A stretch of 32,000 bases of DNA from Candidatus Saccharimonadota bacterium (lineage in GTDB: Bacteria; Patescibacteriota; Saccharimonadia; Saccharimonadales; Saccharimonadaceae), in contig NZ_CP045921.1 in assembly GCF_025273655.1 (NCBI RefSeq), positions 540,001 to 572,000 of the forward strand, given 5' to 3'. The position numbers and the translations under genes were made by a program. This document shows positions 8,460 to 30,053 of this stretch, in pieces; position 1 is the first letter of the stretch, and each line of letters begins with the position of its first letter. The notes under the pieces were generated by a model. That model was given only the letters and a program-made list of their open reading frames with translations. It did no database searches and had not been told where the DNA came from.

Positions 8460-9146
8460 TTACTCTACCGCAACGGCACGAATAGTAATACGCTTATCAT
8501 ATGTTTGCTGCGCGGGGATCCAGTTGCCAGTACAACTGATAAGATTGAGACCTTCTGCTATATCACTAGCCGACTCGGACATGCGTTTCATGCCGCCGTT
8601 ATTGAGATCGTCAAGTGTCAGAGTCTTGACCTCTTGTACTTCGTAAGTAAACTTCTGGCCATCACCGCGCTCTACGGTAATCTCGTCGCCTTCTTTCATA
8701 TCCGGCAGCTTCTCGAACACCCCGCCTTTTGTAGGGCCGCCGTTATGCCCGTCGAGCAGCAATGCGCTACTGCCGCTGCCCGGAGTAGCGGATTTGGTGT
8801 ACCAACCCACGTCGTGAATGTTATGCGGTGTATCGAGCTCGCCATTTGCTTTTGTACCTACCGACAAGACCCTCGCTTTGTCGATACCGAGCGACGGGAT
8901 TGATATATAACGCGGCTGATTTGGCGCAACCTTGTGACCCTCTGTCTGTACTGTAGTGACATCTGCTTCGTCGACTTCTGGATTTGCCGCAGCCAGGGCG
9001 ACTGGCACAGGTGGCTGCTCACCTGTCGTGTAGTAGCGATAGCCATACCATGCACAAGCAGCCACTAGCGCTGCGCCGAGTAAGATAGAGAGCCATAGTC
9101 CGAAATGCGATTCGCTTTTTTGTTCGATACGCAGTCCAGTTACCAT
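8460..9146 (-). CDS. sortase-family transpeptidase (class E/F-like), membrane anchored
   Basis: 228 aa with an N-terminal TM helix (FGLWLSILLGAALVAACAWYGY). Contains IPSLGID, GWY...PG, the catalytic His context LLLDGHNGG, the catalytic Cys in LISCTG, and a conserved Arg in KRITIRAV. Confidence 0.7.
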   Translation of the reverse strand: MVTGLRIEQKSESHFGLWLSILLGAALVAACAWYGYRYYTTGEQPPVPVALAAANPEVDEADVTTVQTEGHKVAPNQPRYISIPSLGIDKARVLSVGTKANGELDTPHNIHDVGWYTKSATPGSGSSALLLDGHNGGPTKGGVFEKLPDMKEGDEITVERGDGQKFTYEVQEVKTLTLDDLNNGGMKRMSESASDIAEGLNLISCTGNWIPAQQTYDKRITIRAVAVE

Positions 9147-10713: not shown

Positions 10714-11250
10714 TTACGATTCGCACAACTTTTCAACCTCTTGCAAAATTTCTGACTCGAGATCCTCCGTTGTATCAACAACAATAATTCCACGGTCTCT
10801 ACAGAGGCTTCTTATGTAGCTCTCACTACCTCCACCCATTTTTTCGTAGTTTTGATCAAAGCCTACCACTATCGGGATCGACATGTCGTACGTTCGCCAG
10901 CCTATCGCCCCACCAAGCTCAATGCGGCTAGTCTGCGCATATGCACGACTGGTTTTATAGGGAATAGAAGCATCTTGCGCAGCCCACCAAAATGCGGTCA
11001 CGCCTAATTGTCTCGTATAATCTCTTGTCGTAAACTCCCAGAGTTTCTGCTCATCAGCATCAAACTTCTTTTGGTCATCTTCGGTTCTTCGTGGAGACAT
11101 GACAACAATGTCATCTCTTGCGCCTAGCAGTTGACGCGCAAGCGGTGTTTGCCAATCCGATGCTCCCTGTACAGGACCGGCGAGGAATACTGACGGCTTG
11201 TTATCATGAATATCTGGGTAGTGCGGAGGAGTATACAATCTCTCTATCAT
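10714..11250 (-). CDS. nucleoside 2-deoxyribosyltransferase-like fold protein (tentative)
   Basis: 178 aa. SVFLAGPVQGASDW near the N-terminus and a later TSRIELGGAIG resemble the FLAG...W and (T/S)xxExG motifs of NDT/Rcl-like families. Recalled from memory, not searched. Confidence 0.4.
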   Translation of the reverse strand: MIERLYTPPHYPDIHDNKPSVFLAGPVQGASDWQTPLARQLLGARDDIVVMSPRRTEDDQKKFDADEQKLWEFTTRDYTRQLGVTAFWWAAQDASIPYKTSRAYAQTSRIELGGAIGWRTYDMSIPIVVGFDQNYEKMGGGSESYIRSLCRDRGIIVVDTTEDLESEILQEVEKLCES

Positions 11251-11307: not shown

Positions 11308-11790
11308 CTATTTCTCGGCTTTTTCTGCAGCCTTAGCAGACTGTTTGATCGGTGTCGGTACTTTTTCAAATGTACCACCAGCCTTGGTGATAGCTGCCTG
11401 TACGCTCGCAGATGCAGCCTGCACCTTGAGCGTTACCTTTTCTGTCAGCTCACCACGAGCAATTACCTTTACAGTGTGAAAAGGTGTCGCTACGTAGCCC
11501 GCCTCAAACAGAGTCATGTTATCGGCAGTTTTACCCTTGAACGCGTTGAGGTGATCAAGGTAGACGACTTGTGCAGGAGCCTTGAAGCTCTTGAAGCCAC
11601 GGTTTTTTGGTGCGCGCTGCGCCAGTGGGCCTGAGCCACCCTGGAACATAGCGTTGAGCTTCTTGCCTGTACGAGCCTTCTGACCCTTTGTACCACGACC
11701 AGCAGTTTTACCACCGCCAGCAGAGATACCTCGGCCGACTCGCTTCTTTGTCTTATTGGCAGAAACGTTGAGTTCGTTGTACTTAGTCAT
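11308..11790 (-). CDS. rplO: 50S ribosomal protein L15
   Basis: 160 aa. The segment K.KKRVGRGISAGGGKTAGRGTKGQKAR is typical of L15. Its ATG overlaps the rpsE stop by 1 nt (TAATG). Confidence 0.9.
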   Translation of the reverse strand: MTKYNELNVSANKTKKRVGRGISAGGGKTAGRGTKGQKARTGKKLNAMFQGGSGPLAQRAPKNRGFKSFKAPAQVVYLDHLNAFKGKTADNMTLFEAGYVATPFHTVKVIARGELTEKVTLKVQAASASVQAAITKAGGTFEKVPTPIKQSAKAAEKAEK

Positions 11791-12392
11791 TATTTAGTCT
11801 CCTCTTTGTCTGCTTTTTTAGCAGCCTTTTTTGGAGCGTTCAGCCACTGGTCTCGGGGAACAAGTGTCTTGAGCGCATCGATAGTTGCGTAGGCGATGTT
11901 GACCTTGTTGGTGCTGCCCAGGCTCTTCGAGAGCAAGTTACGTACACCAGTTACACCAATTACCTGTCGCACTACACCACCGGCGATAATGCCGGTACCA
12001 GGTGCAGCTGGCTTGATGAGGACTTGTGCGCCACTTACCTTCACTTCTGCATCATGTGGAATCGTCTCATTTGCGATAGGCACAGTGATGAGATTTTTCT
12101 TTGCTACATCAGTTGCTTTTGCGATAGCAGTCTGGACATCTTGTCCTTTACTCACGCCAACGCCGACCTTGTCTTTGCGGTTACCCACTACGACAAGCGC
12201 CTTGAAGCGGAAGCGACGGCCGCCTTTGACCACACGGGCCACGCGGTCGATGTTGATCACTACTTCTTCAAATTCTTTCGGCGCAGCATCGGCTGCGTTT
12301 CGTCGGTCATCGCGACGACCACCACGCTGAGGACCGCGACCGCGGTTGTCTGAGCGAGGGGTAGTAGTTGCTGGTGCTTGTGCGTCAGCCAT
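11790..12392 (-). CDS. rpsE: 30S ribosomal protein S5
   Basis: Start trimmed to Met30 of the track ORF (cat at 12390-12392), 1 nt after the rplR stop. The core VVKGGRRFRF.ALVVVGN and G.GIIAGG are S5 motifs. Both termini carry Arg/Lys-rich extensions. Confidence 0.9.
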   Translation of the reverse strand: MADAQAPATTTPRSDNRGRGPQRGGRRDDRRNAADAAPKEFEEVVINIDRVARVVKGGRRFRFKALVVVGNRKDKVGVGVSKGQDVQTAIAKATDVAKKNLITVPIANETIPHDAEVKVSGAQVLIKPAAPGTGIIAGGVVRQVIGVTGVRNLLSKSLGSTNKVNIAYATIDALKTLVPRDQWLNAPKKAAKKADKEETK

Positions 12393-12393
12393 A

Positions 12394-12747
12394 CTAGAAC
12401 TCCAATCCTTCTTTACGTGCAGCGTCGGCGAGTGCGCTGAGGCGACCAGCGTACTGGCGGCCATTGCGATCGAACACAACTGCGGTTACTTTAGCTTTCT
12501 TTGCTTTTTTGGCAATGTCTGTACCAACTTTTGCTGCTAGTTCAGTTTTGCTACCGGTTGCTTTGGCGCCGACGGTTGTCGCAGCAGCAAGCGTATGACC
12601 CGCAACGTCGTCGATCAGCTGTGCGCTTACGTGCACATTGCTGATAGTAACAGTGAGGCGTGGACGTTCAGCGGTGCCGGTAACCTTGGCGCGGACACGG
12701 CCTTTACGAAGTGACTTGTTCAGTGCTTTTTTAGCGAGATCTGCCAT
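12394..12747 (-). CDS. rplR: 50S ribosomal protein L18
   Basis: 117 aa. RPRLTV..SN.H..AQ.IDD and VVFDRNG..Y.GR..A.A.AAR..GL.F are typical of L18. Confidence 0.9.
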   Translation of the reverse strand: MADLAKKALNKSLRKGRVRAKVTGTAERPRLTVTISNVHVSAQLIDDVAGHTLAAATTVGAKATGSKTELAAKVGTDIAKKAKKAKVTAVVFDRNGRQYAGRLSALADAARKEGLEF

Positions 12748-19420: not shown

Positions 19421-20031
19421 TATGCTTCTCCTCCTACCAGCCATGCTTTGATCTGGTCGATAGCTTTGGCGCTGATCACGATATGATCGGCGTTGAGCAC
19501 GTCGTAGACATTGAGAAATGTCGGGCTGACCAATTTTACCTGCTGAACGTTACCGGTTGCACGGATCAACTCTGGAGTTTTTTCTGTGACAACCAAAACT
19601 TTACGTTCAAGTTTTTTGTCAGCGAGGTATTTCGCAACTTCGGCTGTTTTGCCAGTAGTCTTGATATCGTCGATAACAATCTTCTTGGCTTCGTTTGCAA
19701 GCGTAAGTGCTTGCTTTACAGCTACACGTTTTGAAGTCTTAGAAAGCTTCTTAGTGTAGTTTTCGTTGCCACGTGGACCAAATACAATACCACCAGTACG
19801 CCAGATAGGGTTGCGGGTGCTACCAAATCGTGCGCGGCCGGTACCTTTTTGCTTCCATGGCTTCTTACCACCACCGCTTACTTCGCCACGAGTTTTCGTG
19901 GTTGCGCTCGCGAGGCGGTTGTTTGCCAGATACGAATCGTACGCCAGCTTGAGTAGATCGTGGCTTGGCACTTCTACTGCGAAAACTTCTTTGGGCAAAG
20001 TCGTCTTCTTGGTTGTAGTGGTTTCTGCCAT
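19420..20031 (-). CDS. rplD: 50S ribosomal protein L4
   Basis: 203 aa. RGEVSGGGKKPWKQKGTGRAR.GS.R.P.W..GG..FGP is typical of L4. Confidence 0.9.
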   Translation of the reverse strand: MAETTTTKKTTLPKEVFAVEVPSHDLLKLAYDSYLANNRLASATTKTRGEVSGGGKKPWKQKGTGRARFGSTRNPIWRTGGIVFGPRGNENYTKKLSKTSKRVAVKQALTLANEAKKIVIDDIKTTGKTAEVAKYLADKKLERKVLVVTEKTPELIRATGNVQQVKLVSPTFLNVYDVLNADHIVISAKAIDQIKAWLVGGEA

Positions 20032-20645
20032 TACGCCTTACCTCCGATTACTACCAGACCCTTACGAGGGCCGGGTACTGCACCTTTGAGGCCGATGAGA
20101 TTGGTCTCGGCGTCGATGTACGCGACTGCCAAGTTTTTCACCGTCACTTGATCGTGACCCATGCGGCCAGGCATGCGCTTACCCTTGAAGACTTTTTGTG
20201 GGTACATCGAGCCGATTGAACCGACGCGACGCACATCACCGTTGCCACCGTGGGATTTTGCGCTTGTATTAAAGTTGTGTCGTTTTACCGTACCGGCAAA
20301 ACCTTTACCTTTTGATGTACCGGTTGCCTGGACGAGTTCACCCAGCTCAAACGTATTTACATCGATCGTATCCCCTACCTTGAGGCCTTCAGGTAGTTCA
20401 TTGACACGAAATTCCCGAATGTGCTTCGGAGTCACTTTGGCGGATTTTACATGTCCAGCCACGGCCTTGCTCAGGTTCTTACCCTCACCATATGCTACCT
20501 GAACTGCGTTGTAACCGTCGCTTTCGACAGTCTTCACCTGAGTCACAGTCACAGGGCCAGCTTGGATGAGTGTCACGGGTGTCACACGACCATCTTCGCC
20601 GATGATTTGGGTCATACCAATTTTGGTACCGAGAAGTGCTTTCAT
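20031..20645 (-). CDS. rplC: 50S ribosomal protein L3
   Basis: Start trimmed to MKALLGTKIGMTQI (cat at 20643-20645; alternative start at 20654), with GGGAGA 9 nt upstream. The upstream in-frame extension lies in the leader. Confidence 0.9.
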   Translation of the reverse strand: MKALLGTKIGMTQIIGEDGRVTPVTLIQAGPVTVTQVKTVESDGYNAVQVAYGEGKNLSKAVAGHVKSAKVTPKHIREFRVNELPEGLKVGDTIDVNTFELGELVQATGTSKGKGFAGTVKRHNFNTSAKSHGGNGDVRRVGSIGSMYPQKVFKGKRMPGRMGHDQVTVKNLAVAYIDAETNLIGLKGAVPGPRKGLVVIGGKA

Positions 20646-20775
20646 TGCCTTCATTCTCCCACTTAAAACCCTTGGTGGCCGACGGTTTCCCTGCTGCTTG
20701 GACTCCTCCACGCTCCGGGACCTTTCGATTCACCAAGGTCGCTTGCTATTGTTTGTACATAAAAGTAACCTTCTC

Positions 20776-20805
20776 ACTATAGCACGGAATAGGGGTGGGC
20801 GTCAA
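20776..20805 (-). promoter_or_regulatory. candidate promoter for the rplC-to-rpsH unit
   Basis: The minus strand reads TTGACG-18 nt-TATAGT. It lies about 125 nt upstream of the rplC ATG. Confidence 0.5.
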
Positions 20806-20839
20806 GAGACATTAGCTAAGTCACTAAGATGTGTCTTTA

Positions 20840-20868
20840 TTGACATTGTTATGTAAAAGTTGTAATAT
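20840..20868 (+). promoter_or_regulatory. candidate promoter (divergent from rplC promoter)
   Basis: TTGACA (20840-20845), a 17-nt spacer, then TAATAT (20863-20868). Confidence 0.55.
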
Positions 20869-20909
20869 ATATCTGCGATATGCACCCACACCTACGGAAG
20901 GCTGCAGTC

Positions 20910-21152
20910 ATGAAAGATCAAACCACACCACGCGCGACAACCCACGAGACCATCAAGCTCGACGAGCTAATTCAAGGGCTTGTCCGACAACTCGAAGCAA
21001 ACAAGATTCCGCTCGACGATGCTCTGCCGGCACTGCTTCTAGAGGCAATGGAGCATAACGAATCGCTCGGCGTTTTGTTTCGTCGACAAGCGGACACGAG
21101 CATGTACGACAGTCCGGCTTTCCAGGCGCTTCATCGTACGCGCTGCTGCTAA
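20910..21152 (+). CDS. hypothetical small protein (80 aa, mildly acidic, helical-looking, ends RTRCC)
   Basis: Start trimmed to the ATG at 20910, which has GGAAGG 8 nt upstream. The track start at 20880 lies only ~12 nt after the -10. No recognisable family. Confidence 0.4.
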   Translation: MKDQTTPRATTHETIKLDELIQGLVRQLEANKIPLDDALPALLLEAMEHNESLGVLFRRQADTSMYDSPAFQALHRTRCC

Positions 21153-21167
21153 GTGAGGAGTCTCTGA

Positions 21168-21317
21168 ATGATTTTCGGGTATAGACCCCTCGCGCAACAC
21201 ATACATGCCCTGCAACTTAGAATGCCGCGAGCAAAGACGAGCGGTAAACTGCCAAGGCACAACGATACGCGCATAGCGCGTCCGTTCGGACACATCCAAA
21301 GTGTCCGAAAGAAATAA
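21168..21317 (+). CDS. possible 49-aa strongly basic small ORF (may instead be structured non-coding RNA)
   Basis: Below the track cutoff. GAGGAG, 7 nt, then ATG. Translation: MIFGYRPLAQHIHALQLRMPRAKTSGKLPRHNDTRIARPFGHIQSVRKK. Its 3' half overlaps two hairpins at 21267-21281 and 21285-21309. Confidence 0.25.
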   Translation: MIFGYRPLAQHIHALQLRMPRAKTSGKLPRHNDTRIARPFGHIQSVRKK

Positions 21318-21333
21318 CGCCCCATACGGGTTC

Positions 21334-21384
21334 GAGAACCGCCCCACCAGGCTTGATCTCCCCGGTGGGGCGGTTCTCATTTTT
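21334..21384 (+). terminator. strong rho-independent terminator
   Basis: A 15-bp perfect GC-rich stem GAGAACCGCCCCACC/GGTGGGGCGGTTCTC (21334-21348 with 21364-21378), followed by ATTTTT. Confidence 0.75.
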
Positions 21385-21411
21385 GACATATTGATTTTTA
21401 GGTTTTACAAT
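21383..21411 (+). promoter_or_regulatory. near-consensus promoter for the Cys-rich ORF
   Basis: TTGACA (21383-21388), a 17-nt spacer, then TACAAT (21406-21411). The -35 overlaps the T-run of the preceding terminator. Confidence 0.6.
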
Positions 21412-21451
21412 AGCCTTTATCACGTGATCGCCACGTGAAGGAAGGAGCGCC

Positions 21452-21697
21452 ATGTGCGCCGATAAAAATCCGTGCGGCTCGCCGGACTTCTGTCTGGATG
21501 ACGGCGGATGCGCCTGCGGCATACCCGGCAACAGGGATCGAGTCAGTCCAAGAGTGACCCTCATCTATGGCCACGACACAGAAGAGCCAGCTTTTCTGTG
21601 TGCGAGCGGCAACGAGCGTTGCCCCACATTGCAAGCATGCGCGGAAGATCCCGACAACTGCATGCCCAATGTACCGCATATCCCGATAGTCCGGTGA
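21452..21697 (+). CDS. hypothetical Cys-rich small protein (81 aa, 9 Cys)
   Basis: SD gaAGGAGcgccATG. Cys at positions 2, 8, 14, 20, 22, 50, 57, 63 and 70. No signal peptide or TM helix. The frame choice rests on the promoter, SD and terminator context, because several other frames are open here. Confidence 0.45.
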   Translation: MCADKNPCGSPDFCLDDGGCACGIPGNRDRVSPRVTLIYGHDTEEPAFLCASGNERCPTLQACAEDPDNCMPNVPHIPIVR

Positions 21698-21710
21698 TGC
21701 ATAACTTCTC

Positions 21711-21750
21711 GTGCCGGAGGCTCGCTCGTATGAGCGATGACCTCCGGCAC
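21711..21750. terminator. convergent-gene hairpin (no U-tract)
   Basis: GTGCCGGAGG/CCTCCGGCAC (10 bp) plus an inner TCGCTC/GAGCGA (6 bp) with a GTAT loop. It lies between the Cys-rich ORF stop (21697) and the stop of the 576-aa gene (21777). Confidence 0.4.
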
Positions 21751-21776
21751 GATGATCAATTCCACCACTAGGGTAT

Positions 21777-23507
21777 TTATTGATTTCTGAGCTTTTCTAT
21801 TTCTTTTGTCAAATCGGCAATAGTCGCCCATGAACTTTTGTCTGTCATGATACTTAGCGCATACGTGCCGCTTGGGCTATATACAATCGCCGCATCGTGC
21901 AAGAGACCGTCCAAGAATCCGACTTTGTCGGCCACCTGTCCGCTCGCTCCTGCAGGGATACCTTGTCGATACACGTTACGTTTCAGTGCATCGAGAAAAC
22001 GTGCTTTGCTATCGGCATTCAGTGAAATCTGCCCGGTGGCGAGCGATGCCATAAACGTGCTCAGGTCTCCTGCTGTCGTCTTGTAGCTCTCCTTGTCGAG
22101 AAATGTTGTACTTGCGCTCACGATAGTTTGCGCGTCTTTCGTCAGTGGCGCATAGCCTATGCGAGCTACCAACGCCTCGGCACAGGCGTTGTCCGACTTC
22201 ACGATCATGTCGTCGAAGCACCTGGTGAGATCTCGACCGCCAGCCACCTGGTCGCTCCATTTGTACTCCCCTGATTCGATTCGCTTCAGTGTACTAAAGG
22301 CAACGTAGAGTTTATAGGTACTCGCAGTGGTGAATTTTTGCGTATCGTTATACGCGGCTCGGCGACGCTTACCGTCGAGCTCTACGAGCGACACACCGTA
22401 GACACCCGGGTGACTTTCTGCGTAGTTCTTCATGAGCGCAGAAAGACCAGTGTCGGTATTACTGTAGCTGCGCGCGTATTGCACTGTCGGCTGTACGAGT
22501 GCTTCGCCGAGTGGCACGGTTGCAGACTTAGCAAGCAGAAATTGCTTGAGATTCACATACGTCTTAGCTGTATCGAGCTGGCGACCCGTCTGGCCATCTT
22601 GGCGAGATACTTCTACAAAATCTTGGGTGGTTACTTTACTCACGCCTGCCTGCCTAGCAAGTGCGGCGCCGTATTTGTCTGTCAAATACTTGTCAGCTTG
22701 GGCCCCGTCAAATCGTATGTCAAACACATCTCCTTCAGTACTAAATGCCAACCATTCGCGAATCGTCTTGCTAGGCAGCATATCCGTCTTACTGTCGTAA
22801 GTAAGAGTTGCTGGCTGCGCCAGCTGATGGTTAAGAGTTGCAACAACGGGTTTCACCGTGTCTGCAGTAAGTTTGGCTGGCAGCGGGTCCATCGCAATGC
22901 GTGCGTTCGTCTGTGCAGTCAGAGTAGGGCTAACAGATTTAAGGGTTTTAGCGACATCTTGCCGCTGGCAGTTACCGCCATCCTCTTCTGCTACGACAAC
23001 GACCGAGTCGCCAGATACTTTAGCAGTAGCGTTGCGCGGCTCAACATGACACTCAGTACCAAACTGCTTCGTGAGATACGCATCGAGCTTTTTGTTATCT
23101 CGCGTATAGCTAGGTGCGCTAGGCTTGACCACCATATGCGACCAGAGAATCGAAGTAGGCACAAGACGAAGGTACCATGGATACGAGGCTTGTGCGACGC
23201 GCGAAGTATTGTCGACTCCGAGACCAAACTCAGCAAACTTTGGCTGGTACTGTGGAGTGGATGTCTTGCCAAAATAGAGTGCAAGTGTACGCTCGCTATA
23301 CTGCGAATCAAGCCGCTTCGCAGCCTGGTCAATGGTCACGGCGCCAAGTTGTTGACCATCTATTTGCTGCCAAGGCGCAAGTCTGTCGTACGGATACACA
23401 AGCTGCACGACGAGAAACAGACCCAAAATACCGGCCGGTACACCAATAGCAAGCTGCTTCTTGTGTGTCCGCAGCCACGCTCTCACCCCTCCCGTGCGAA
23501 TATTCAT
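21777..23507 (-). CDS. membrane-anchored serine hydrolase with C-terminal class A beta-lactamase-like domain
   Basis: 576 aa with one TM helix (residues ~19-38). The C-terminal ~220 aa carry S396-T-Y-K, S438-D-N, E473 followed by a KTTAGDL..FM segment, and K528-V-G. These correspond to the SxxK / SDN / omega-loop Glu / KTG motifs. The N-terminal ~340 aa are unassigned. Confidence 0.7.
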   Translation of the reverse strand: MNIRTGGVRAWLRTHKKQLAIGVPAGILGLFLVVQLVYPYDRLAPWQQIDGQQLGAVTIDQAAKRLDSQYSERTLALYFGKTSTPQYQPKFAEFGLGVDNTSRVAQASYPWYLRLVPTSILWSHMVVKPSAPSYTRDNKKLDAYLTKQFGTECHVEPRNATAKVSGDSVVVVAEEDGGNCQRQDVAKTLKSVSPTLTAQTNARIAMDPLPAKLTADTVKPVVATLNHQLAQPATLTYDSKTDMLPSKTIREWLAFSTEGDVFDIRFDGAQADKYLTDKYGAALARQAGVSKVTTQDFVEVSRQDGQTGRQLDTAKTYVNLKQFLLAKSATVPLGEALVQPTVQYARSYSNTDTGLSALMKNYAESHPGVYGVSLVELDGKRRRAAYNDTQKFTTASTYKLYVAFSTLKRIESGEYKWSDQVAGGRDLTRCFDDMIVKSDNACAEALVARIGYAPLTKDAQTIVSASTTFLDKESYKTTAGDLSTFMASLATGQISLNADSKARFLDALKRNVYRQGIPAGASGQVADKVGFLDGLLHDAAIVYSPSGTYALSIMTDKSSWATIADLTKEIEKLRNQ

Positions 23508-23528
23508 GGTATCCAGTATAGCAAACTA

Positions 23529-23882
23529 CTAGATGACGATGCCAGCGTTGAGGAAGAAGCCAATAATCGTCACGACCACGAGTACCGCATAGAGGATCTT
23601 ACGGTTAAACTGTGCGTGCTCAAGCCACGCGATTAGTACCAACGCAATCACCGCTCCAGCTGGAAATGCGCCGACAGGCAGCACGCCACCTATCATGACT
23701 GGATCTGCCAGACGTAGCCACATCAGACCGGCGAGTGTCACTACGACTAGCTTGAAGAGATATACACCATCTGGCTCGAAAACGTTTTCGAGACCTTTAC
23801 GGCTGACAACGGGGCGATTGCGAGCGTAGGTACGGGCTTTGTTGGATTTTTGTGTTGCCATAAGTACTTTGTAGTATAGCAT
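23529..23882 (-). CDS. hypothetical small integral membrane protein
   Basis: 117 aa (110 aa if it starts at the ATG at 23861). A basic N-terminus is followed by three hydrophobic segments. It ends 21 nt before the hydrolase start, so it is probably co-transcribed. Confidence 0.5.
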   Translation of the reverse strand: MLYYKVLMATQKSNKARTYARNRPVVSRKGLENVFEPDGVYLFKLVVVTLAGLMWLRLADPVMIGGVLPVGAFPAGAVIALVLIAWLEHAQFNRKILYAVLVVVTIIGFFLNAGIVI

Positions 23883-23883
23883 A

Positions 23884-23912
23884 TTGTAAGTTTTGTATAA
23901 ACATGATATAAT
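23884..23912 (+). promoter_or_regulatory. near-consensus extended -10 promoter
   Basis: TTGTAA (23884-23889), a 17-nt spacer, then TATAAT (23907-23912) preceded by TGA. This gives TGATATAAT, matching TGnTATAAT. Confidence 0.55.
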
Positions 23913-23951
23913 ATACTCCGTCCTACACCGACTACTGGGAGTACACTAATC

Positions 23952-24251
23952 ATGACTCTTGCGATCTTTATCATCAAGCCTGATGGCCGCGAGCTGCAAG
24001 TACCGATTGCCGAATCTGAGATTGGCAGCCGAGTCGTGGAAGTGACGCTTGACACAGAGACATTCCATATCTCGATGTCGGCACACACTTTTGTCCCTAC
24101 GGCTATCAACATCCGAGCCATGCGTGAAGGCATCGATGGCAGCCAAGTTTTCGGCATCAAGGTACCAAAACAGGTATTACGAGATGATTGTGCCTTTCGC
24201 GTTCATCTCACGTCCGGGACTGAAATCCATATCGCGCGGTCGAACATGTAG
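23952..24251 (+). CDS. hypothetical protein (99 aa, soluble, beta-rich looking)
   Basis: GGGAG lies 10 nt upstream of the ATG. The ORF is bracketed by a strong promoter and a terminator. No recognisable motif. Confidence 0.45.
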   Translation: MTLAIFIIKPDGRELQVPIAESEIGSRVVEVTLDTETFHISMSAHTFVPTAINIRAMREGIDGSQVFGIKVPKQVLRDDCAFRVHLTSGTEIHIARSNM

Positions 24252-24314
24252 CGACACGGCGAGGAGTCATACGACGATTGAGTCGCAAGGCTCTTCGTCG
24301 TTATGACGCCTACC

Positions 24315-24343
24315 AAAAACCACCCTGTGCAGGGTGGTTTTTT
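24315..24343. terminator. bidirectional terminator shared by rpsJ and the 99-aa ORF
   Basis: AAAAACCACCCT-GTGC-AGGGTGGTTTTTT. It lies 16 nt downstream of the rpsJ stop. Confidence 0.7.
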
Positions 24344-24358
24344 GTGATGACCGACTAG

Positions 24359-24673
24359 TTACATGCGAATTTCTGCATCGACACCAGCTGGGAGGCTGAG
24401 GTTTTGCAGGCTATCGATTGTCTTTGGCGACGCGTTGGTAATGTCGATAAGGCGCTTGTGTACACGCATCTCAAATGCTTCACCACCTTTTTTGTAGACG
24501 TGCGGGCTTTTGACGACCGTGAACGTACTACGACGAGTTGGCAAAGGGATGGGACCTGCCACATCAGCGCCGGTACGAACGGCAGTGTCGATAATTTGTT
24601 TTGCTGATTGGTCGATCACTTTGTGATCATACGCCTTGAGGCGAATGCGGATTTTGAGACCTGCGTCTGCCAT
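24359..24673 (-). CDS. rpsJ: 30S ribosomal protein S10 (NusE)
   Basis: Start trimmed to [18 protein letters not shown] (cat at 24671-24673), with AAGGAG 8 nt upstream. IRI.L.A.D....D and the PLPT loop are typical of S10. Confidence 0.92.
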
Positions 24674-24772
24674 GAGTAAAACTCCTTCTGCTTTCCGTAA
24701 CCTCTGCTCTGAATCGTGTCGGTACCCGCTCACGTCTGGCCGAGTTCTCGGAAAAATTAATAATACCTAGGT

Positions 24773-24801: not shown

Positions 24802-24824
24802 GCATTTCACCTCTGGTGTATACT
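24796..24824 (+). promoter_or_regulatory. candidate promoter of the plus-strand cassette, sharing the same -35 hexamer
   Basis: The plus strand reads TTGCAA (24796-24801), a 17-nt spacer, then TATACT (24819-24824). TTGCAA is its own reverse complement. Confidence 0.5.
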
Positions 24825-24908
24825 GCCACAATACTCCAGGTATCCAGAAGACGCCGCCGGAGTCGCCTCGCCGCAGATCGCGCGCGAGTCATAGGACAGG
24901 GAGATGAA

Positions 24909-25238
24909 ATGAACCTGCACGAAGAACTCGTCAATCAGATCGTAGACATCGCAGACAACAACGCGAGCGACCACCTCGAGATCTCAATGCGATATCTTCT
25001 CGAGCGAGTTGCAGATGCAGTTCAGCAGACGACAATATTGCCGGCGCCTCATGAAGAGCGAGCCAGTTTTTTGCAGTCCGTGGCCATCCAGGCCTCGAGT
25101 CGACTAAAACAGCGGACTGTCACTTACGAGGAGCCTGTATCCCAAGAGGGATTTTGGCAGCGAAGCCCGAAGGGCAGGCGTACAATCGTGCCCATACGGC
25201 CATCTCAGCAACGTTTCCATGTCAGGTACGCCGCCTGA
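24909..25238 (+). CDS. hypothetical protein (109 aa; acidic helical N-half, basic C-half)
   Basis: Start trimmed to the ATG at 24909 (GGGAGA 4-5 nt upstream), because the track GTG start at 24816 lies inside the promoter. No known motif recognised. Confidence 0.45.
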   Translation: MNLHEELVNQIVDIADNNASDHLEISMRYLLERVADAVQQTTILPAPHEERASFLQSVAIQASSRLKQRTVTYEEPVSQEGFWQRSPKGRRTIVPIRPSQQRFHVRYAA

Positions 25239-25287: not shown

Positions 25288-25367
25288 ACCCAAGCTGTCA
25301 ATAGTTTGACGATTTGGGTGACGTATTATTTACATTCCTATCAAGCAAGCGTACACTAGCAGTAACC

Positions 25368-25850
25368 ATGAGTGCCATGCCACTTTCTCACGAGTTTGCC
25401 TCGGCCGACGAGGGCGGCGGCACCGTGCCTCATCACTTGCTGCGAATAGCAGAAAAACATAATGTTTATGAAACCGAGCGCATGCGCATACTTCGCGCGC
25501 AGCTCACACATATAGCCATAGCTGATAGCGAAAAGATGGCCGACCTACGCGTCGAATACCTCGAGGAGCTCAATCGCCCAGAGTTTGACGCACGAAGATA
25601 TGATACACCCGAAAAGTTTTTTATTGCCAGAGGCCATACCGCACTTCGCGCGCTCCTGTTCTATATAGCTCATTTATACAGTGAGTCCTGGCAAGAGCAC
25701 GGGTGGCTTATCGATGATCTCAAGATCGCACAAGATGACCAAGAGTCACTCGCACTTGCCTATACATCACGCTCAGAAATTGAGACCGTCCTCAAACAGC
25801 ACTATGCGACACATCTTCCAGCAAACTCTCAGCTCTATAGCATAGACTGA
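25368..25850 (+). CDS. hypothetical protein (160 aa, helical-looking, soluble)
   Basis: The first ATG is at 25368; the track uses a TTG at 25314. There is no clear SD. No known motif recognised. Confidence 0.45.
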   Translation: MSAMPLSHEFASADEGGGTVPHHLLRIAEKHNVYETERMRILRAQLTHIAIADSEKMADLRVEYLEELNRPEFDARRYDTPEKFFIARGHTALRALLFYIAHLYSESWQEHGWLIDDLKIAQDDQESLALAYTSRSEIETVLKQHYATHLPANSQLYSID

Positions 25851-25908: not shown

Positions 25909-26349
25909 ATGCTCCCGGCACCTACACAAGTTCTCTCGCGCATGGGCGCATTCGACCCCGAGTGGATGAATTTCAGACTCGAAGTAAAACCTTTGGTCAA
26001 TACGAGTGAGCCCATCTACTGCAACAATGAAAGTGCAACTGTTGAACATGTGATACGCAGAACCGTGTGCAATGACGCGCTGACACGAGCCTCCGCCGTG
26101 CTCGCAAACCCCGACACACGTTTTAATGTCGATATCGAGCTCATAGATACCGACAAAGTGCCCGACTTCTCACTCAAGTTGGGACTTCTGACGGACATGC
26201 TTTTCTACAGTAACCTTAGCCAGAGTCTGCAGGTAGAGAAAGGAGGGCTCGGCATACTCGCATTTGAGTCACCCGCCAACATTCGGCGCGGCCGCCCTGC
26301 CATAGTTACGATTGGGCTGAACCACTATCCAGAAGATCAGCTTCCCTAG
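25909..26349 (+). CDS. hypothetical protein (146 aa, soluble)
   Basis: A strong SD, GAGGAGG, lies 4 nt upstream of the ATG. A 7-bp hairpin ACCGACT/AGTCGGT (25875-25891) lies just upstream. No known motif recognised. Confidence 0.55.
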   Translation: MLPAPTQVLSRMGAFDPEWMNFRLEVKPLVNTSEPIYCNNESATVEHVIRRTVCNDALTRASAVLANPDTRFNVDIELIDTDKVPDFSLKLGLLTDMLFYSNLSQSLQVEKGGLGILAFESPANIRRGRPAIVTIGLNHYPEDQLP

Positions 26350-27760: not shown

Positions 27761-28297
27761 TTAGCCGTTTTGGCTAGAATCACCCGATTCACTCGACTGG
27801 CTTGTGCCCTGGGTACCTGCGCCTGGGCCACCGCGCATTTGCGGATTCAGTTCAATTGTAGTTGCAGTGTCCGAGCTACTATTCGACGTCTCGACACGTA
27901 CTGTATCACCAGTCTTGATATCACTAATTGCGGCGGCCTCCCCGTTGTTCGTCACTTTAGTATCGCTAGTGATCTTGTACGTCGTCGTGCTACCCTCGGA
28001 GTTACTGTCACTATCACCTTGCCCCATGCGCATCATGCGAGACTCGATAGTGACACTTGAGTCCGACACAGTTGTAACTGTGCCAAAGCCACCACGCATC
28101 ATGCCCGAGCCACCGCGCTGCCCAGACATCGAGTCCATGCCCTGCATGCCCGAGCCATTACTCGCCTTGCCGATCTGCATTCCGGCGAACAAACCAGCTC
28201 CCGCTGAAACCACTATCGCCACGACGATAGCGATATACCATTTTGCCGAACTCTCCTGTCTCGCCACACTTGGCGGTGTTGTCATTTGTTCTGTCAT
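27761..28297 (-). CDS. membrane-anchored or secreted Gly/Met/Ser-rich protein with beta-rich core (possibly DUF5666-like)
   Basis: 178 aa with an N-terminal TM/signal helix (WYIAIVVAIVVSAGAGLFAG). Met/Gly-rich repeats are present (GSGMQGMDSMSGQRGGSGMMRGG; MMRMGQGD; PQMRGGPGAG). The core TVTTVSDSSVTIES...KITSDTKVT..G..A.ISDIKTGDTV.V follows. The family call is from memory only. Confidence 0.5.
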   Translation of the reverse strand: MTEQMTTPPSVARQESSAKWYIAIVVAIVVSAGAGLFAGMQIGKASNGSGMQGMDSMSGQRGGSGMMRGGFGTVTTVSDSSVTIESRMMRMGQGDSDSNSEGSTTTYKITSDTKVTNNGEAAAISDIKTGDTVRVETSNSSSDTATTIELNPQMRGGPGAGTQGTSQSSESGDSSQNG

Positions 28298-28355: not shown

Positions 28356-30053
28356 TTAATCCGCGAGTGATTTGTGGCGAAGCGCTGCTCGGCCGAGCTT
28401 GACCATATGCTTCTCGCGGTAGCGCTCAAAACTCTGCTTACTAATACCATGATTGGATATAAACATACTCATGCGTTCTGAGCCTATGAAGTGGGGTAGC
28501 ATGACATAGCTGACACCCAGTTGATAGAGTTCGGCCGCTTCATTGTACGAGTTAGCATAGCAGACTATAGCCGCTTCAGGATTGCGTTTGAGAATATACT
28601 TACTGAGCGAAACGTTGATAGTATGGTCGCCGATAGTATTTACTACCAGTTTGGCCGCGTCCATCTCAAGCTCCGCCAGTAACTCGGGGTCGGTGGCATC
28701 GCCATAGAGATAGTCCACATTTGCTTTGTGGAGATCTTCGATAACTTCTGGATCGTAGTCCACCACCACAAACTTCTTCTTAAGCTCTCTGAACGTGCGG
28801 AGGTACTGATGGCCACCGTTTTTGAACCCAAAGAGGATAAGCGGATATTCCTTAGCCTCATGGTGTGCATCGACAGCTCCACGGCGCTCAAACATACGCA
28901 ACCGGTGATCGATCTTCTGGTAGATCTTGTTGTCATACTGCATGAGGTACGTGGAGATAGTGATGGTAATCAGTGCCACTAGTGTCACAACCGCGCTCAA
29001 TCGCTCGCCTACCATACCAGTCGATGCCGCCAGTACGATCATGATTATTGAAAACTCACTAATCTGCGATAAATTGATGCCCGTCTTGAAGCTCGTGCGG
29101 CGCGTGTACCCCAGCAAGCCAAGCGAGGTCATGACGACGAGCGGCTTGAGTATTACCACCAACGCCGCGATGATCAGTGCCGGTACGAGTGCAGCACCAA
29201 GATTGGCAAAGTTGAGGTTTTCGCCCAGACTAATAAAGAAGAGAACGACGAAGAAATCTCGCAGCGGCTTGAGCCTCGCACCAATCTGGTGCGCATATGG
29301 CAGATGCGCAAGCGCCACACCGGCGAAGAGTGCGCCGATTTCGATTGAGAAGCCAACCGCACTCACCAGTGATGCTACACCAAAGCCCCATGCCAGTGCA
29401 AAGAGAAATAGCAACTCCTGAGACTTCGCCACCGATTTGACGACACGCGGTAGCACTTTGATCGCCACAAGCGCCAACACGCCGATGACCGCCACACCTT
29501 TGAGCAGCAGCATACCGATCTCAAATGGCCCGAGTACCTCGCCACTACTCGACGTCGCCACAAACAGCAGCGCAAACGTTGCCACTATGTCGTCGAGCAG
29601 GATGACACCGATGGCGATTTGACCGTTGAGTCGCGAGATCTCCTTTTTGTCACTCAACACCTTAGCGATGATGATCGTACTACTAAAGAACATGGCAAGC
29701 CCAAGCAGTATCGCTTCTTGCGTAGTAAAGTGAAATGCCGAACCTACTAGGAAACCGATCGTACCCACCGTTGCTAGAATTGCTGCAGCGGTGAGAAAGA
29801 CTGGCTTACCCAACCTCCGGATCACCGATACACTCAGTTCTAACCCGATGATAAAGAGGAGGAGTGCAATACCCAACTCGCTAAACGTCTCAAACGAATG
29901 CTTGTCTTGTATGAGATGGAGCATACTCGGCCCCACCAAAATACCCGTGAGAATATGCCCGACAATAAGAGGCTGCTTGAGCCGGCGCATGAGCAACGCC
30001 ATAAGCGTCGCGACGACAAGCACTACCGCCAGTTGTGTAAAAACATCCCCCAT
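28356..30053 (-). CDS. CPA2-family monovalent cation:proton antiporter (Kef-type) with C-terminal RCK/TrkA-N domain
   Basis: 565 aa. About 12 hydrophobic helices begin at a typical Na_H_exchanger N-terminus (QPLIVGHILTGILVGPS). A cytoplasmic Rossmann-like segment follows (ILFGFKNGG...VVVDYD). AAGGAG lies 8 nt upstream. Confidence 0.8.
   Translation of the reverse strand: MGDVFTQLAVVLVVATLMALLMRRLKQPLIVGHILTGILVGPSMLHLIQDKHSFETFSELGIALLLFIIGLELSVSVIRRLGKPVFLTAAAILATVGTIGFLVGSAFHFTTQEAILLGLAMFFSSTIIIAKVLSDKKEISRLNGQIAIGVILLDDIVATFALLFVATSSSGEVLGPFEIGMLLLKGVAVIGVLALVAIKVLPRVVKSVAKSQELLFLFALAWGFGVASLVSAVGFSIEIGALFAGVALAHLPYAHQIGARLKPLRDFFVVLFFISLGENLNFANLGAALVPALIIAALVVILKPLVVMTSLGLLGYTRRTSFKTGINLSQISEFSIIMIVLAASTGMVGERLSAVVTLVALITITISTYLMQYDNKIYQKIDHRLRMFERRGAVDAHHEAKEYPLILFGFKNGGHQYLRTFRELKKKFVVVDYDPEVIEDLHKANVDYLYGDATDPELLAELEMDAAKLVVNTIGDHTINVSLSKYILKRNPEAAIVCYANSYNEAAELYQLGVSYVMLPHFIGSERMSMFISNHGISKQSFERYREKHMVKLGRAALRHKSLAD

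Follow-up and report, generated by a model that had tools for sequence, protein, structure and literature searches.

The 32,000-nt stretch of a Candidatus Saccharimonadota genome analysed here (NCBI RefSeq assembly GCF_025273655.1, contig NZ_CP045921.1, positions 540,001 to 572,000; 'the window', numbered from its first letter) carries on its plus strand, at 21452–21697, an open reading frame (ORF) with an ATG start that encodes an 81-aa protein containing nine Cys residues. We refer to this frame as the Cys ORF and to its product as the Cys protein. Comparison with relatives establishes that the Cys ORF is a protein-coding gene under purifying selection, and its product belongs to a family that is itself new, as no known family was matched; small Cys-rich proteins as such are a familiar kind. 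Annotation of the source genome seems to have missed the gene: a collection of 15 billion proteins contains the flanking 80-aa and 576-aa proteins of the same 1.08-Mb NCBI contig but lacks the exact 81-aa sequence, and the gene was therefore probably never called. Because gene callers can miss this gene, family counts drawn from protein databases are lower bounds.

A first-pass annotation of this DNA had given the coordinates, the length and the nine Cys positions of the Cys ORF, all of which are correct. It had also warned that at least four other ORFs of more than 60 aa overlap the segment, so that the choice of frame depended on the surrounding expression signals. The ORF list does hold four such overlapping frames of at least 60 aa, at 21217–21564 (−), 21398–21679 (−), 21508–21771 (+) and 21565–21831 (−). 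Codon-usage scoring of all six frames, which had been proposed as a way to choose among them, was run as a log-likelihood against 32 local genes and gave negative values throughout, with −33.8 bits for the frame of the Cys ORF and the best score, −11.6, for its antisense frame, which is also open in the window. The training genes use few Cys, Gly and Pro codons, which makes the scoring uninformative, and the case for coding rests on comparative evidence.

For the comparison at the DNA level we used eight coding sequences (CDS) from six distinct lineages. The frame of 21452–21697 is the sole one free of stops in all eight, and every other frame, antisense included, is stopped in at least four of them. 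Differences at codon positions 1, 2 and 3 number 13, 11 and 32 between the window and locus L002, 22, 19 and 45 between the window and L001, and 20, 21 and 52 between L002 and L001 (related loci are designated by L numbers and homologous proteins by P numbers), and an excess at the third position is seen in each pair with more than three differing sites. A change at the antisense wobble position would fall on position 1 of the Cys ORF, where changes are not enriched, and no other frame on either strand has a third-position excess. The ratio of non-synonymous to synonymous substitution rates (dN/dS) lies at 0.17–0.32 (Nei–Gojobori, pairs with unsaturated dS), and CDS length is held at 80–81 codons in all members but one. 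A single open frame, a third-position excess and a low dN/dS together mean that the Cys ORF is protein-coding and under purifying selection, in the frame that the first-pass annotation had chosen. The alternative, that the Cys ORF arose by chance in GC-rich spacer DNA or is a structured RNA, could point to the poor codon score of its own frame, to the open and better-scoring antisense frame, and to the apparent lack of a gene call in the source genome. It is effectively refuted by the stops in the antisense and remaining frames of the relatives, by substitutions that cluster at the third position of the Cys ORF and not at the antisense wobble, by the kept length and a dN/dS of about 0.2, and by the absence of any Rfam family match to the Cys ORF region.

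Homologues of the Cys protein comprise eight more sequences, 46–98% identical to it and 71–81 aa long as aligned, all from metagenome contigs; one of them had received a gene call of 95 aa that begins further upstream. Protein searches gave P0001 (98% identity), P0002 (75%), P0003 (69%), P0004 (59%), P0005 (47%) and P0010 (53%, 71 aa), and P0044 and P0045 were found as cluster mates. In the alignment of nine sequences, residues M1, A3, G9, D12, L15, C20, C22, I24, P25, H41, E44, F48, L49, C50, N54, E55, C57, C63, C70 and P78 are invariant. F13 is conserved as well, most members end in Trp (W81), and the linker residues 28–39 vary freely. The nine Cys of the 81-aa product stand at positions 2, 8, 14, 20, 22, 50, 57, 63 and 70, and six of them (C20, C22, C50, C57, C63 and C70) are without exception. 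C8 is replaced once (by Tyr in P0010) and C14 twice (by Ser in P0010 and by Arg in P0045), so that the Cys columns singled out by the first-pass annotation for a conservation check include six that are invariant and two that are nearly so. The N-terminal module reads C8-x5-C14-x5-C20-x-C22-GIPGN, with its Cys spacing present in seven of the nine sequences, and the C-terminal module reads H41-D-x-E44...F48-L-C50-x6-C57-P-x4-C63-x6-C70...P78. The regular Cys periodicity claimed earlier does exist in the ORF of the window, but only part of it carries over to the homologues: C2 is found in just three sequences, and the C50–C57 gap is x5 instead of x6 in the most distant clade, that of P0005. As judged from the alignment, the conserved framework is a six-Cys core with an accessory C8/C14 pair and not a set of hexad repeats starting from C2.

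The most reduced member, P0010 (L012, 408–623), has 71 aa, with C8 changed to Tyr and C14 to Ser, a linker deletion of 6–7 residues and a C-terminus shorter by three residues, and may represent a copy that is in decay or has been simplified.

The Cys protein is strongly acidic (isoelectric point (pI) 4.5, net charge about −6), as are all members of the family (pI 4.0–4.5). Its Kyte–Doolittle hydropathy over 11 residues peaks at 0.94, which leaves no hydrophobic segment, and the first 20 residues average −0.32, with a polar N-terminus (MCADKNPCGSPDFC). An in-frame N-terminal extension is impossible, as there is no upstream in-frame start (the ORF listing begins at the first start after a stop). 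No signal peptide, lipobox, transmembrane segment or double-glycine-type leader was found in the 81-aa protein, which bears out the earlier description of an acidic protein lacking a signal peptide and a transmembrane helix. Cys makes up about 10% of the residues (9/81), with a single CxC, and CxxC occurs nowhere in the 81-aa sequence. By tblastn, the protein has no paralogues in the window.

Searches beyond close relatives returned nothing recognisable. Pfam gave no match at E ≤ 10 for six members, and NCBIfam gave none at E ≤ 1 for three members. Neither a PDB sequence profile search nor Foldseek against the PDB produced a match, and two AlphaFold2 runs yielded predicted local distance difference test (pLDDT) values of 52.6 and 48.3, with no confident fold and almost no predicted secondary structure. 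An exhaustive hidden Markov model (HMM) search of 1.84 billion representatives recovered only two family clusters plus long repeat proteins (P0006–P0009), which we rejected as spurious given an hhalign probability of 5% and Cys residues that do not align. The sole match in a genome contig, from Geodermatophilus tzadiensis (L008), was likewise spurious, as it runs antisense and out of frame to a real gene of a high-GC genome and crosses a stop codon. Family-profile scans of metagenome and viral contig collections gave no relatives. So far, the known members of the family all come from a small number of close relatives within Candidatus Saccharibacteria, and literature searches on Cys-rich proteins, Fur or iron-sulfur (Fe-S) in Saccharibacteria, and on the sample accessions, turned up nothing relevant.

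The Cys ORF is embedded in a compact set of expression signals, most of which recur in its relatives. A sigma-70-type promoter lies at 21383–21411 (+), with TTGACA at 21383–21388 and TACAAT at 21406–21411 separated by 17 nt, and matches 11 of 12 consensus positions. The two hexamers and their spacing recur in L007, L002, L005, L010, L011 and L012; L009 has TTGACG-17-TATGAT, and the promoter of L001 is less canonical. Across the 1.3-kb region, three promoter-like sites are found versus 1.2 expected. A Shine–Dalgarno sequence, AAGGAG, is located at 21442–21447 (+), 4 nt before the ATG, and is kept as GAAGGAAGGAG or GAAGAAGGGAG in all lineages. Both elements had been called in the first-pass annotation, the second as AGGAG, and both hold up at these positions, as does the broader proposal of a stand-alone gene with its own promoter, Shine–Dalgarno sequence and 3′ hairpin.

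Between the −10 hexamer and the Shine–Dalgarno sequence, the 5′ untranslated region (5′-UTR) holds a stem-loop at 21420–21438 (+), TCACGTG-atcgc-CACGTGA, which with its flanks folds at −15.5 kcal/mol (z = −3.2). It spans from a few nucleotides past the inferred start of transcription to shortly before the Shine–Dalgarno sequence. Over seven sequences, 89% of cells are paired and three of the eight pairs show compensatory double changes, compared with 11–61% pairing in control registers slid by 1–3 columns.

Downstream of the gene, a 3′ hairpin at 21707–21755 (+) has 21 pairs, including a 6-bp inner stem, and folds at −36.8 kcal/mol (z = −7.2). The first-pass annotation had described it as a 16-bp hairpin; its presence stands and is conserved in relatives, but it is longer than that and has no U-tract. 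All six lineages have such a hairpin, with 17–21 bp and −33 to −37 kcal/mol, beginning 9–17 nt past the stop codon. Its sequences in L001, L009 and L012 are unrelated, yet the structure is kept, and it accompanies the Cys ORF even next to a different downstream gene (a plus-strand VanY gene in L001, a membrane protein gene in L009). The hairpin probably serves as terminator and 3′ stabiliser of the Cys ORF transcript, and also as a barrier to the convergent gene for the 576-aa protein, which ends at 21777.

Immediately upstream of the promoter, a GC-rich hairpin at 21334–21378 (+; −35.2 kcal/mol, z = −6.8) is followed by a T-run at 21380–21384, which runs into the −35 hexamer. This hairpin varies hardly at all in its loop and 3′ arm (GATCTCCCCGGTGGGGCGATTCTC) across all lineages, including L012, where no plus-strand gene lies upstream, and the element looks like an intrinsic terminator or insulator placed right before the promoter. 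Since promoter, 5′ stem-loop and 3′ hairpin travel with the gene, they form a self-contained monocistronic unit. From these cis elements we infer the probable transcription start and an mRNA that would be short, insulated, stable and strongly expressed, with a predicted length of about 340 nt (from about 21418 to about 21755).

At the DNA level, the segment at 21355–21384, made up of the T-run and of the loop and 3′ arm (GATCTCCCCGGTGGGGCGGTTCTC) of that upstream hairpin, is almost unchanged across all lineages, while the 5′ arm drifts. In L012 the element is kept though it lies only about 20 nt from the divergent rplC promoter. This persistence means that the element may have a role beyond termination, such as that of a protein-binding site immediately 5′ of the −35 hexamer. 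A resemblance of GGTTCGAG...CCCCACCA (21329–21349) to a tRNA-like 3′ end or tmRNA was considered and rejected, as ARAGORN finds no tRNA or tmRNA in the window and Rfam, at E ≤ 10, gives no hit above chance level; these letters form the 5′ arm of the hairpin described above.

The Cys ORF lies within a break in the ribosomal protein genes. The minus strand of the window holds fusA, tuf and the S10, spc and alpha ribosomal protein clusters, and the S10 operon is split, with rpsJ (24359–24733, −) and rplC (20031–20711, −) about 3.6 kb apart (20712–24358). The insert between them comprises an ORF for a 117-aa protein of unknown function, the gene for the 576-aa protein with PG_binding_4 and beta-lactamase-like domains (21777–23507, −), the Cys ORF, and an 80-aa ORF (20910–21152). 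In L001, two VanY genes and PGA_cap take the place of the 576-aa protein. Across loci, the neighbours of the Cys ORF are rplC, the 80-aa ORF, the PG_binding_4 and beta-lactamase-like protein, VanY, PGA_cap and a membrane protein, and wherever the arrangement is visible the Cys ORF stands at the rplC-proximal end. S10 and EF-Tu are 96–98% identical among the lineages, compared with 59–76% for the Cys protein and 67% for the 576-aa protein. By these identities, the Cys protein is an accessory protein that evolves moderately fast, at a rate like that of the neighbouring cell-wall protein.

The first-pass annotation had counted 144 G+C in the 246 nt of the Cys ORF (58.5%), which is exact and compares with 51.1% for the window, and had taken the elevated value as a hint of foreign origin. 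That origin is not supported by the GC evidence. The amino-acid sequence combined with local synonymous codon usage already predicts 55.6% GC; the 243 nt of sense codons have 58.8%, or 8 nt more, and the excess falls mainly at codon position 2 (53.7%, versus 35–51% in other genes). The gene is also syntenic beside rplC in lineages whose S10 and EF-Tu are 96–98% identical. Searches of viral contigs, PHROGs and PADLOC gave no match and thus no sign of a phage or defence-system origin.

The reading of the Cys protein that we favour, though only tentatively, is that of a cytoplasmic metal-binding protein, with Fe-S or Zn as the metal; the function is read here from sequence anatomy. Of the roles suggested in the first-pass annotation, a metal-binding, Fe-S or metallothionein-like protein or a Cys-rich peptide precursor, none finds direct support in a family match, a structure or an adjoining gene. 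The protein's fold would be organised by the conserved Cys, namely the six invariant residues and the accessory C8 and C14, along with H41 and conserved acidic residues. The protein would stay in the cytoplasm, because it has no signal peptide, hydrophobic segment or N-terminal extension, and its thiolates would bind Fe-S or Zn in one or two metal centres. As a small metalloprotein, it may then serve in redox or electron transfer, in metal buffering or in sensing. With a near-consensus promoter, a 5′-terminal stem-loop, a strong Shine–Dalgarno sequence and a very stable 3′ hairpin, the gene would be set up for high and stable expression.

Support for a metal-binding role comes from the invariant Cys, H41 and E44, from the strong acidity and from the missing leader. 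Small acidic metalloproteins such as ferredoxins and rubredoxins share a low pI. The Cys-x5-Cys-x5-Cys of the N-terminal module, with a nearby fourth ligand, resembles, in spacing only, the Fe-S ligand motif of IscR, Cys-X5-Cys-X5-Cys-X2-His (PMC9218516). Additionally, in L009, the most divergent lineage, the sequence TGATTATCATTATCA at 482–496 matches 13 of 14 positions of a Fur-type 7-1-7 box (consensus from PMC4506495) and overlaps the −10/+1 region of the Cys ORF promoter. It is the only site with at most two mismatches in 61 kb, where 0.03 sites with at most one mismatch would be expected by chance.

Several observations weigh against metal binding. The Fur-like box is seen in L009 only, with no comparable site in the window or the other loci. 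The Cys protein has neither the CxxC nor the CxxH knuckle, one or the other of which is present in almost every structural Zn site and in the majority of Fe-S motifs. In the literature, Cys spacings of 5–6 residues are more typical of disulfide-rich mini-proteins. The joint replacement of C8 and C14 in P0010, and of C14 alone in P0045, makes the Rrf2-like three-Cys motif dispensable in some members. AlphaFold2 gave no confident fold at the pLDDT values above, and profile, PDB and Foldseek searches gave no match.

The main rival, which we regard as rather unlikely, is that the product is a mini-protein stabilised by disulfides and exported to act where epibiont and host meet, as an effector, an adhesin modulator or a signalling or antagonistic peptide that leaves the cell without a leader by a non-Sec route. 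The 5–6 residue Cys spacing with CxC, the loops rich in Gly, Pro, Asn and Asp and the near lack of predicted secondary structure would suit such a protein, and most CX5CX5C patterns in the literature come from proteins of the venom, granulin or knottin type. P0010 has lost C8 and C14 together, as a disulfide pair would show, but P0045 lacks only C14 and its C8 would then be unpaired. Faster evolution than the core genes, at about the rate of the neighbouring cell-wall protein, and a location in a variable island of cell-envelope genes would also be in keeping with export, while the lack of a signal peptide, lipobox, transmembrane segment or double-glycine-type leader, and an acidity unlike that of most antimicrobial peptides, argue the other way. 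No transporter or thiol-oxidoreductase gene adjoins the Cys ORF in any locus.

Quite unlikely, in our judgement, is a cytoplasmic thiol redox buffer or sensor that has no stable metal centre and cycles between thiol and disulfide under oxidative stress. A leaderless, acidic, Cys-rich protein could serve in this way, and since PerR and Fur boxes are similar, the Fur-family box of L009 could equally be a PerR-type operator that ties expression to peroxide stress. That box is confined to one lineage, however, the protein has no CxxC redox motif, and the His, Asp and Glu conserved beside the Cys point to ligand sets. Less probable still is a precursor of a ribosomally synthesised and post-translationally modified peptide (RiPP), in which a maturase encoded at another place in the genome would join the Cys through cross-links of the thioether, sactionine or ranthionine type. 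Such a precursor would be small and Cys-rich, with no signal peptide and no family match, as is the case here. The absence of an adjoining maturase, radical-SAM enzyme or transporter, already remarked on in the first-pass annotation, holds in the window, and neither there nor in the related loci with readable neighbours is there an adjoining radical-SAM, LanM/LanB/LanC, cyclodehydratase, protease or ABC exporter gene. Conservation extends over both halves of the protein and includes non-Cys residues (G9, D12, L15, I24, P25, H41, E44, F48, L49, N54, E55 and P78), leaving no split into a conserved leader and a variable core, and none of the NCBIfam precursor models, SCIFF included, was matched.

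Known systems resemble the Cys protein in part. It recalls the Fe-S loop of Rrf2/IscR by spacing only, with three Cys at x5 in seven of the nine sequences, a fourth ligand 1–2 residues further on (here C8-x5-C14-x5-C20-x-C22) and Gly-rich loops, but it has no winged-helix domain (PF02082 is unmatched at E = 10), its C8 and C14 are replaceable, and a second, four-Cys module is present. Small acidic ferredoxins (2x[4Fe-4S], eight Cys) and rubredoxins are comparable in size (about 55–80 aa), acidity and lack of a leader, and the eight conserved Cys in a 4+4 arrangement with one Cys-Pro (C57-P58) recall them; the Cys protein, however, contains neither CxxCxxCxxxCP nor CxxCG, and has no Fer4 or rubredoxin match in Pfam and no match of any kind in PDB sequences or by fold. 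Bacterial metallothioneins (SmtA/BmtA, MymT) are likewise small, Cys-rich and cytoplasmic, with possible metal buffering and, as a further likeness, one CxC. Unlike them, the Cys protein is only about 10% Cys, conserves F13, F48 and L49 and in most members a C-terminal Trp, has no CxxC or CC clusters, and matches no Pfam or NCBIfam entry. Knottin, granulin and defensin-like mini-proteins share the 5–6 residue Cys spacing with CxC, turn-rich loops and little regular secondary structure, but they are secreted with signal peptides and mostly eukaryotic, whereas the Cys protein is leaderless and bacterial. SCIFF and ranthipeptide precursors are also short Cys-rich ORFs with no other recognisable domain; in contrast to these, the Cys ORF has no adjoining radical-SAM maturase and no NCBIfam match, is longer, and is conserved over its whole length.

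Other features of the region lie outside the cassette. The 80-aa ORF at 20910–21152 (+) has a promoter-like site at 20840–20868 and no family match. It evolves fast, with 39% identity to its counterpart in L002 and codon-position differences of 41, 31 and 52, and L012 does not have it. Between this ORF and the terminator-like hairpin lie about 190 nt of low conservation, with a 9-bp hairpin at about 21287–21311. On the other side, rplC has a promoter-like site of its own, TTGACG-18-TATAGT at 20805–20776 (−), and L012 has an identical site. Mechanically, the rplC ORF starts at a GTG at 20711, but the L012 gene call opens with MKALLGTKIGMTQ, equivalent to an ATG at about 20645 in the window. That ATG is probably where rplC really begins, giving a longer 5′ leader.

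Further away in the window, there is no L30 gene between rpsE (11790–12479) and rplO (11308–11790). An ORF at 10714–11250, between rplO and secY, matches nucleoside 2-deoxyribosyltransferase-like proteins weakly, and a sortase gene (8460–9146) follows secY. The str/tuf region is also interrupted, with plus-strand ORFs at 24816–25238, 25314–25850 and 25909–26349 between tuf and rpsJ, none with a family match, and with a Na+/H+ exchanger gene encoding a TrkA_N domain (28356–30053) and a DUF5666-like ORF (27761–28297) between fusA and tuf. Across the 32 kb, no tRNA, tmRNA or Rfam family (ribosomal protein leaders included) was found at the gathering threshold.

There is a broader proposal that we consider unlikely, namely that the Cys protein represents a new type of small protein confined to a Saccharibacteria clade. 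It would be either a metal or Fe-S fold built on CxC plus C-x5/6-C-x5-C-x6-C with no CxxC, or a leaderless, disulfide-knotted effector acting against or on the actinobacterial host; in both forms it would be highly expressed from an insulated cassette beside the ribosomal operon and systematically missed by gene callers. Saccharibacteria, as members of the Candidate Phyla Radiation (Patescibacteria), carry very small genomes, with no function assigned to a large proportion of the genes. Should the Cys protein bind metal or an Fe-S cluster through a pattern without CxxC, it would be a new small metalloprotein scaffold, and should it be exported, it would be a candidate for a part in epibiont–host interaction. 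The practical upshot is modest but concrete, in that the Cys ORF should be annotated. More generally, a conserved small gene that is apparently set up for high expression and that automated annotation appears to have passed over shows that comparative reading of intergenic space can recover real small proteins in Saccharibacteria.

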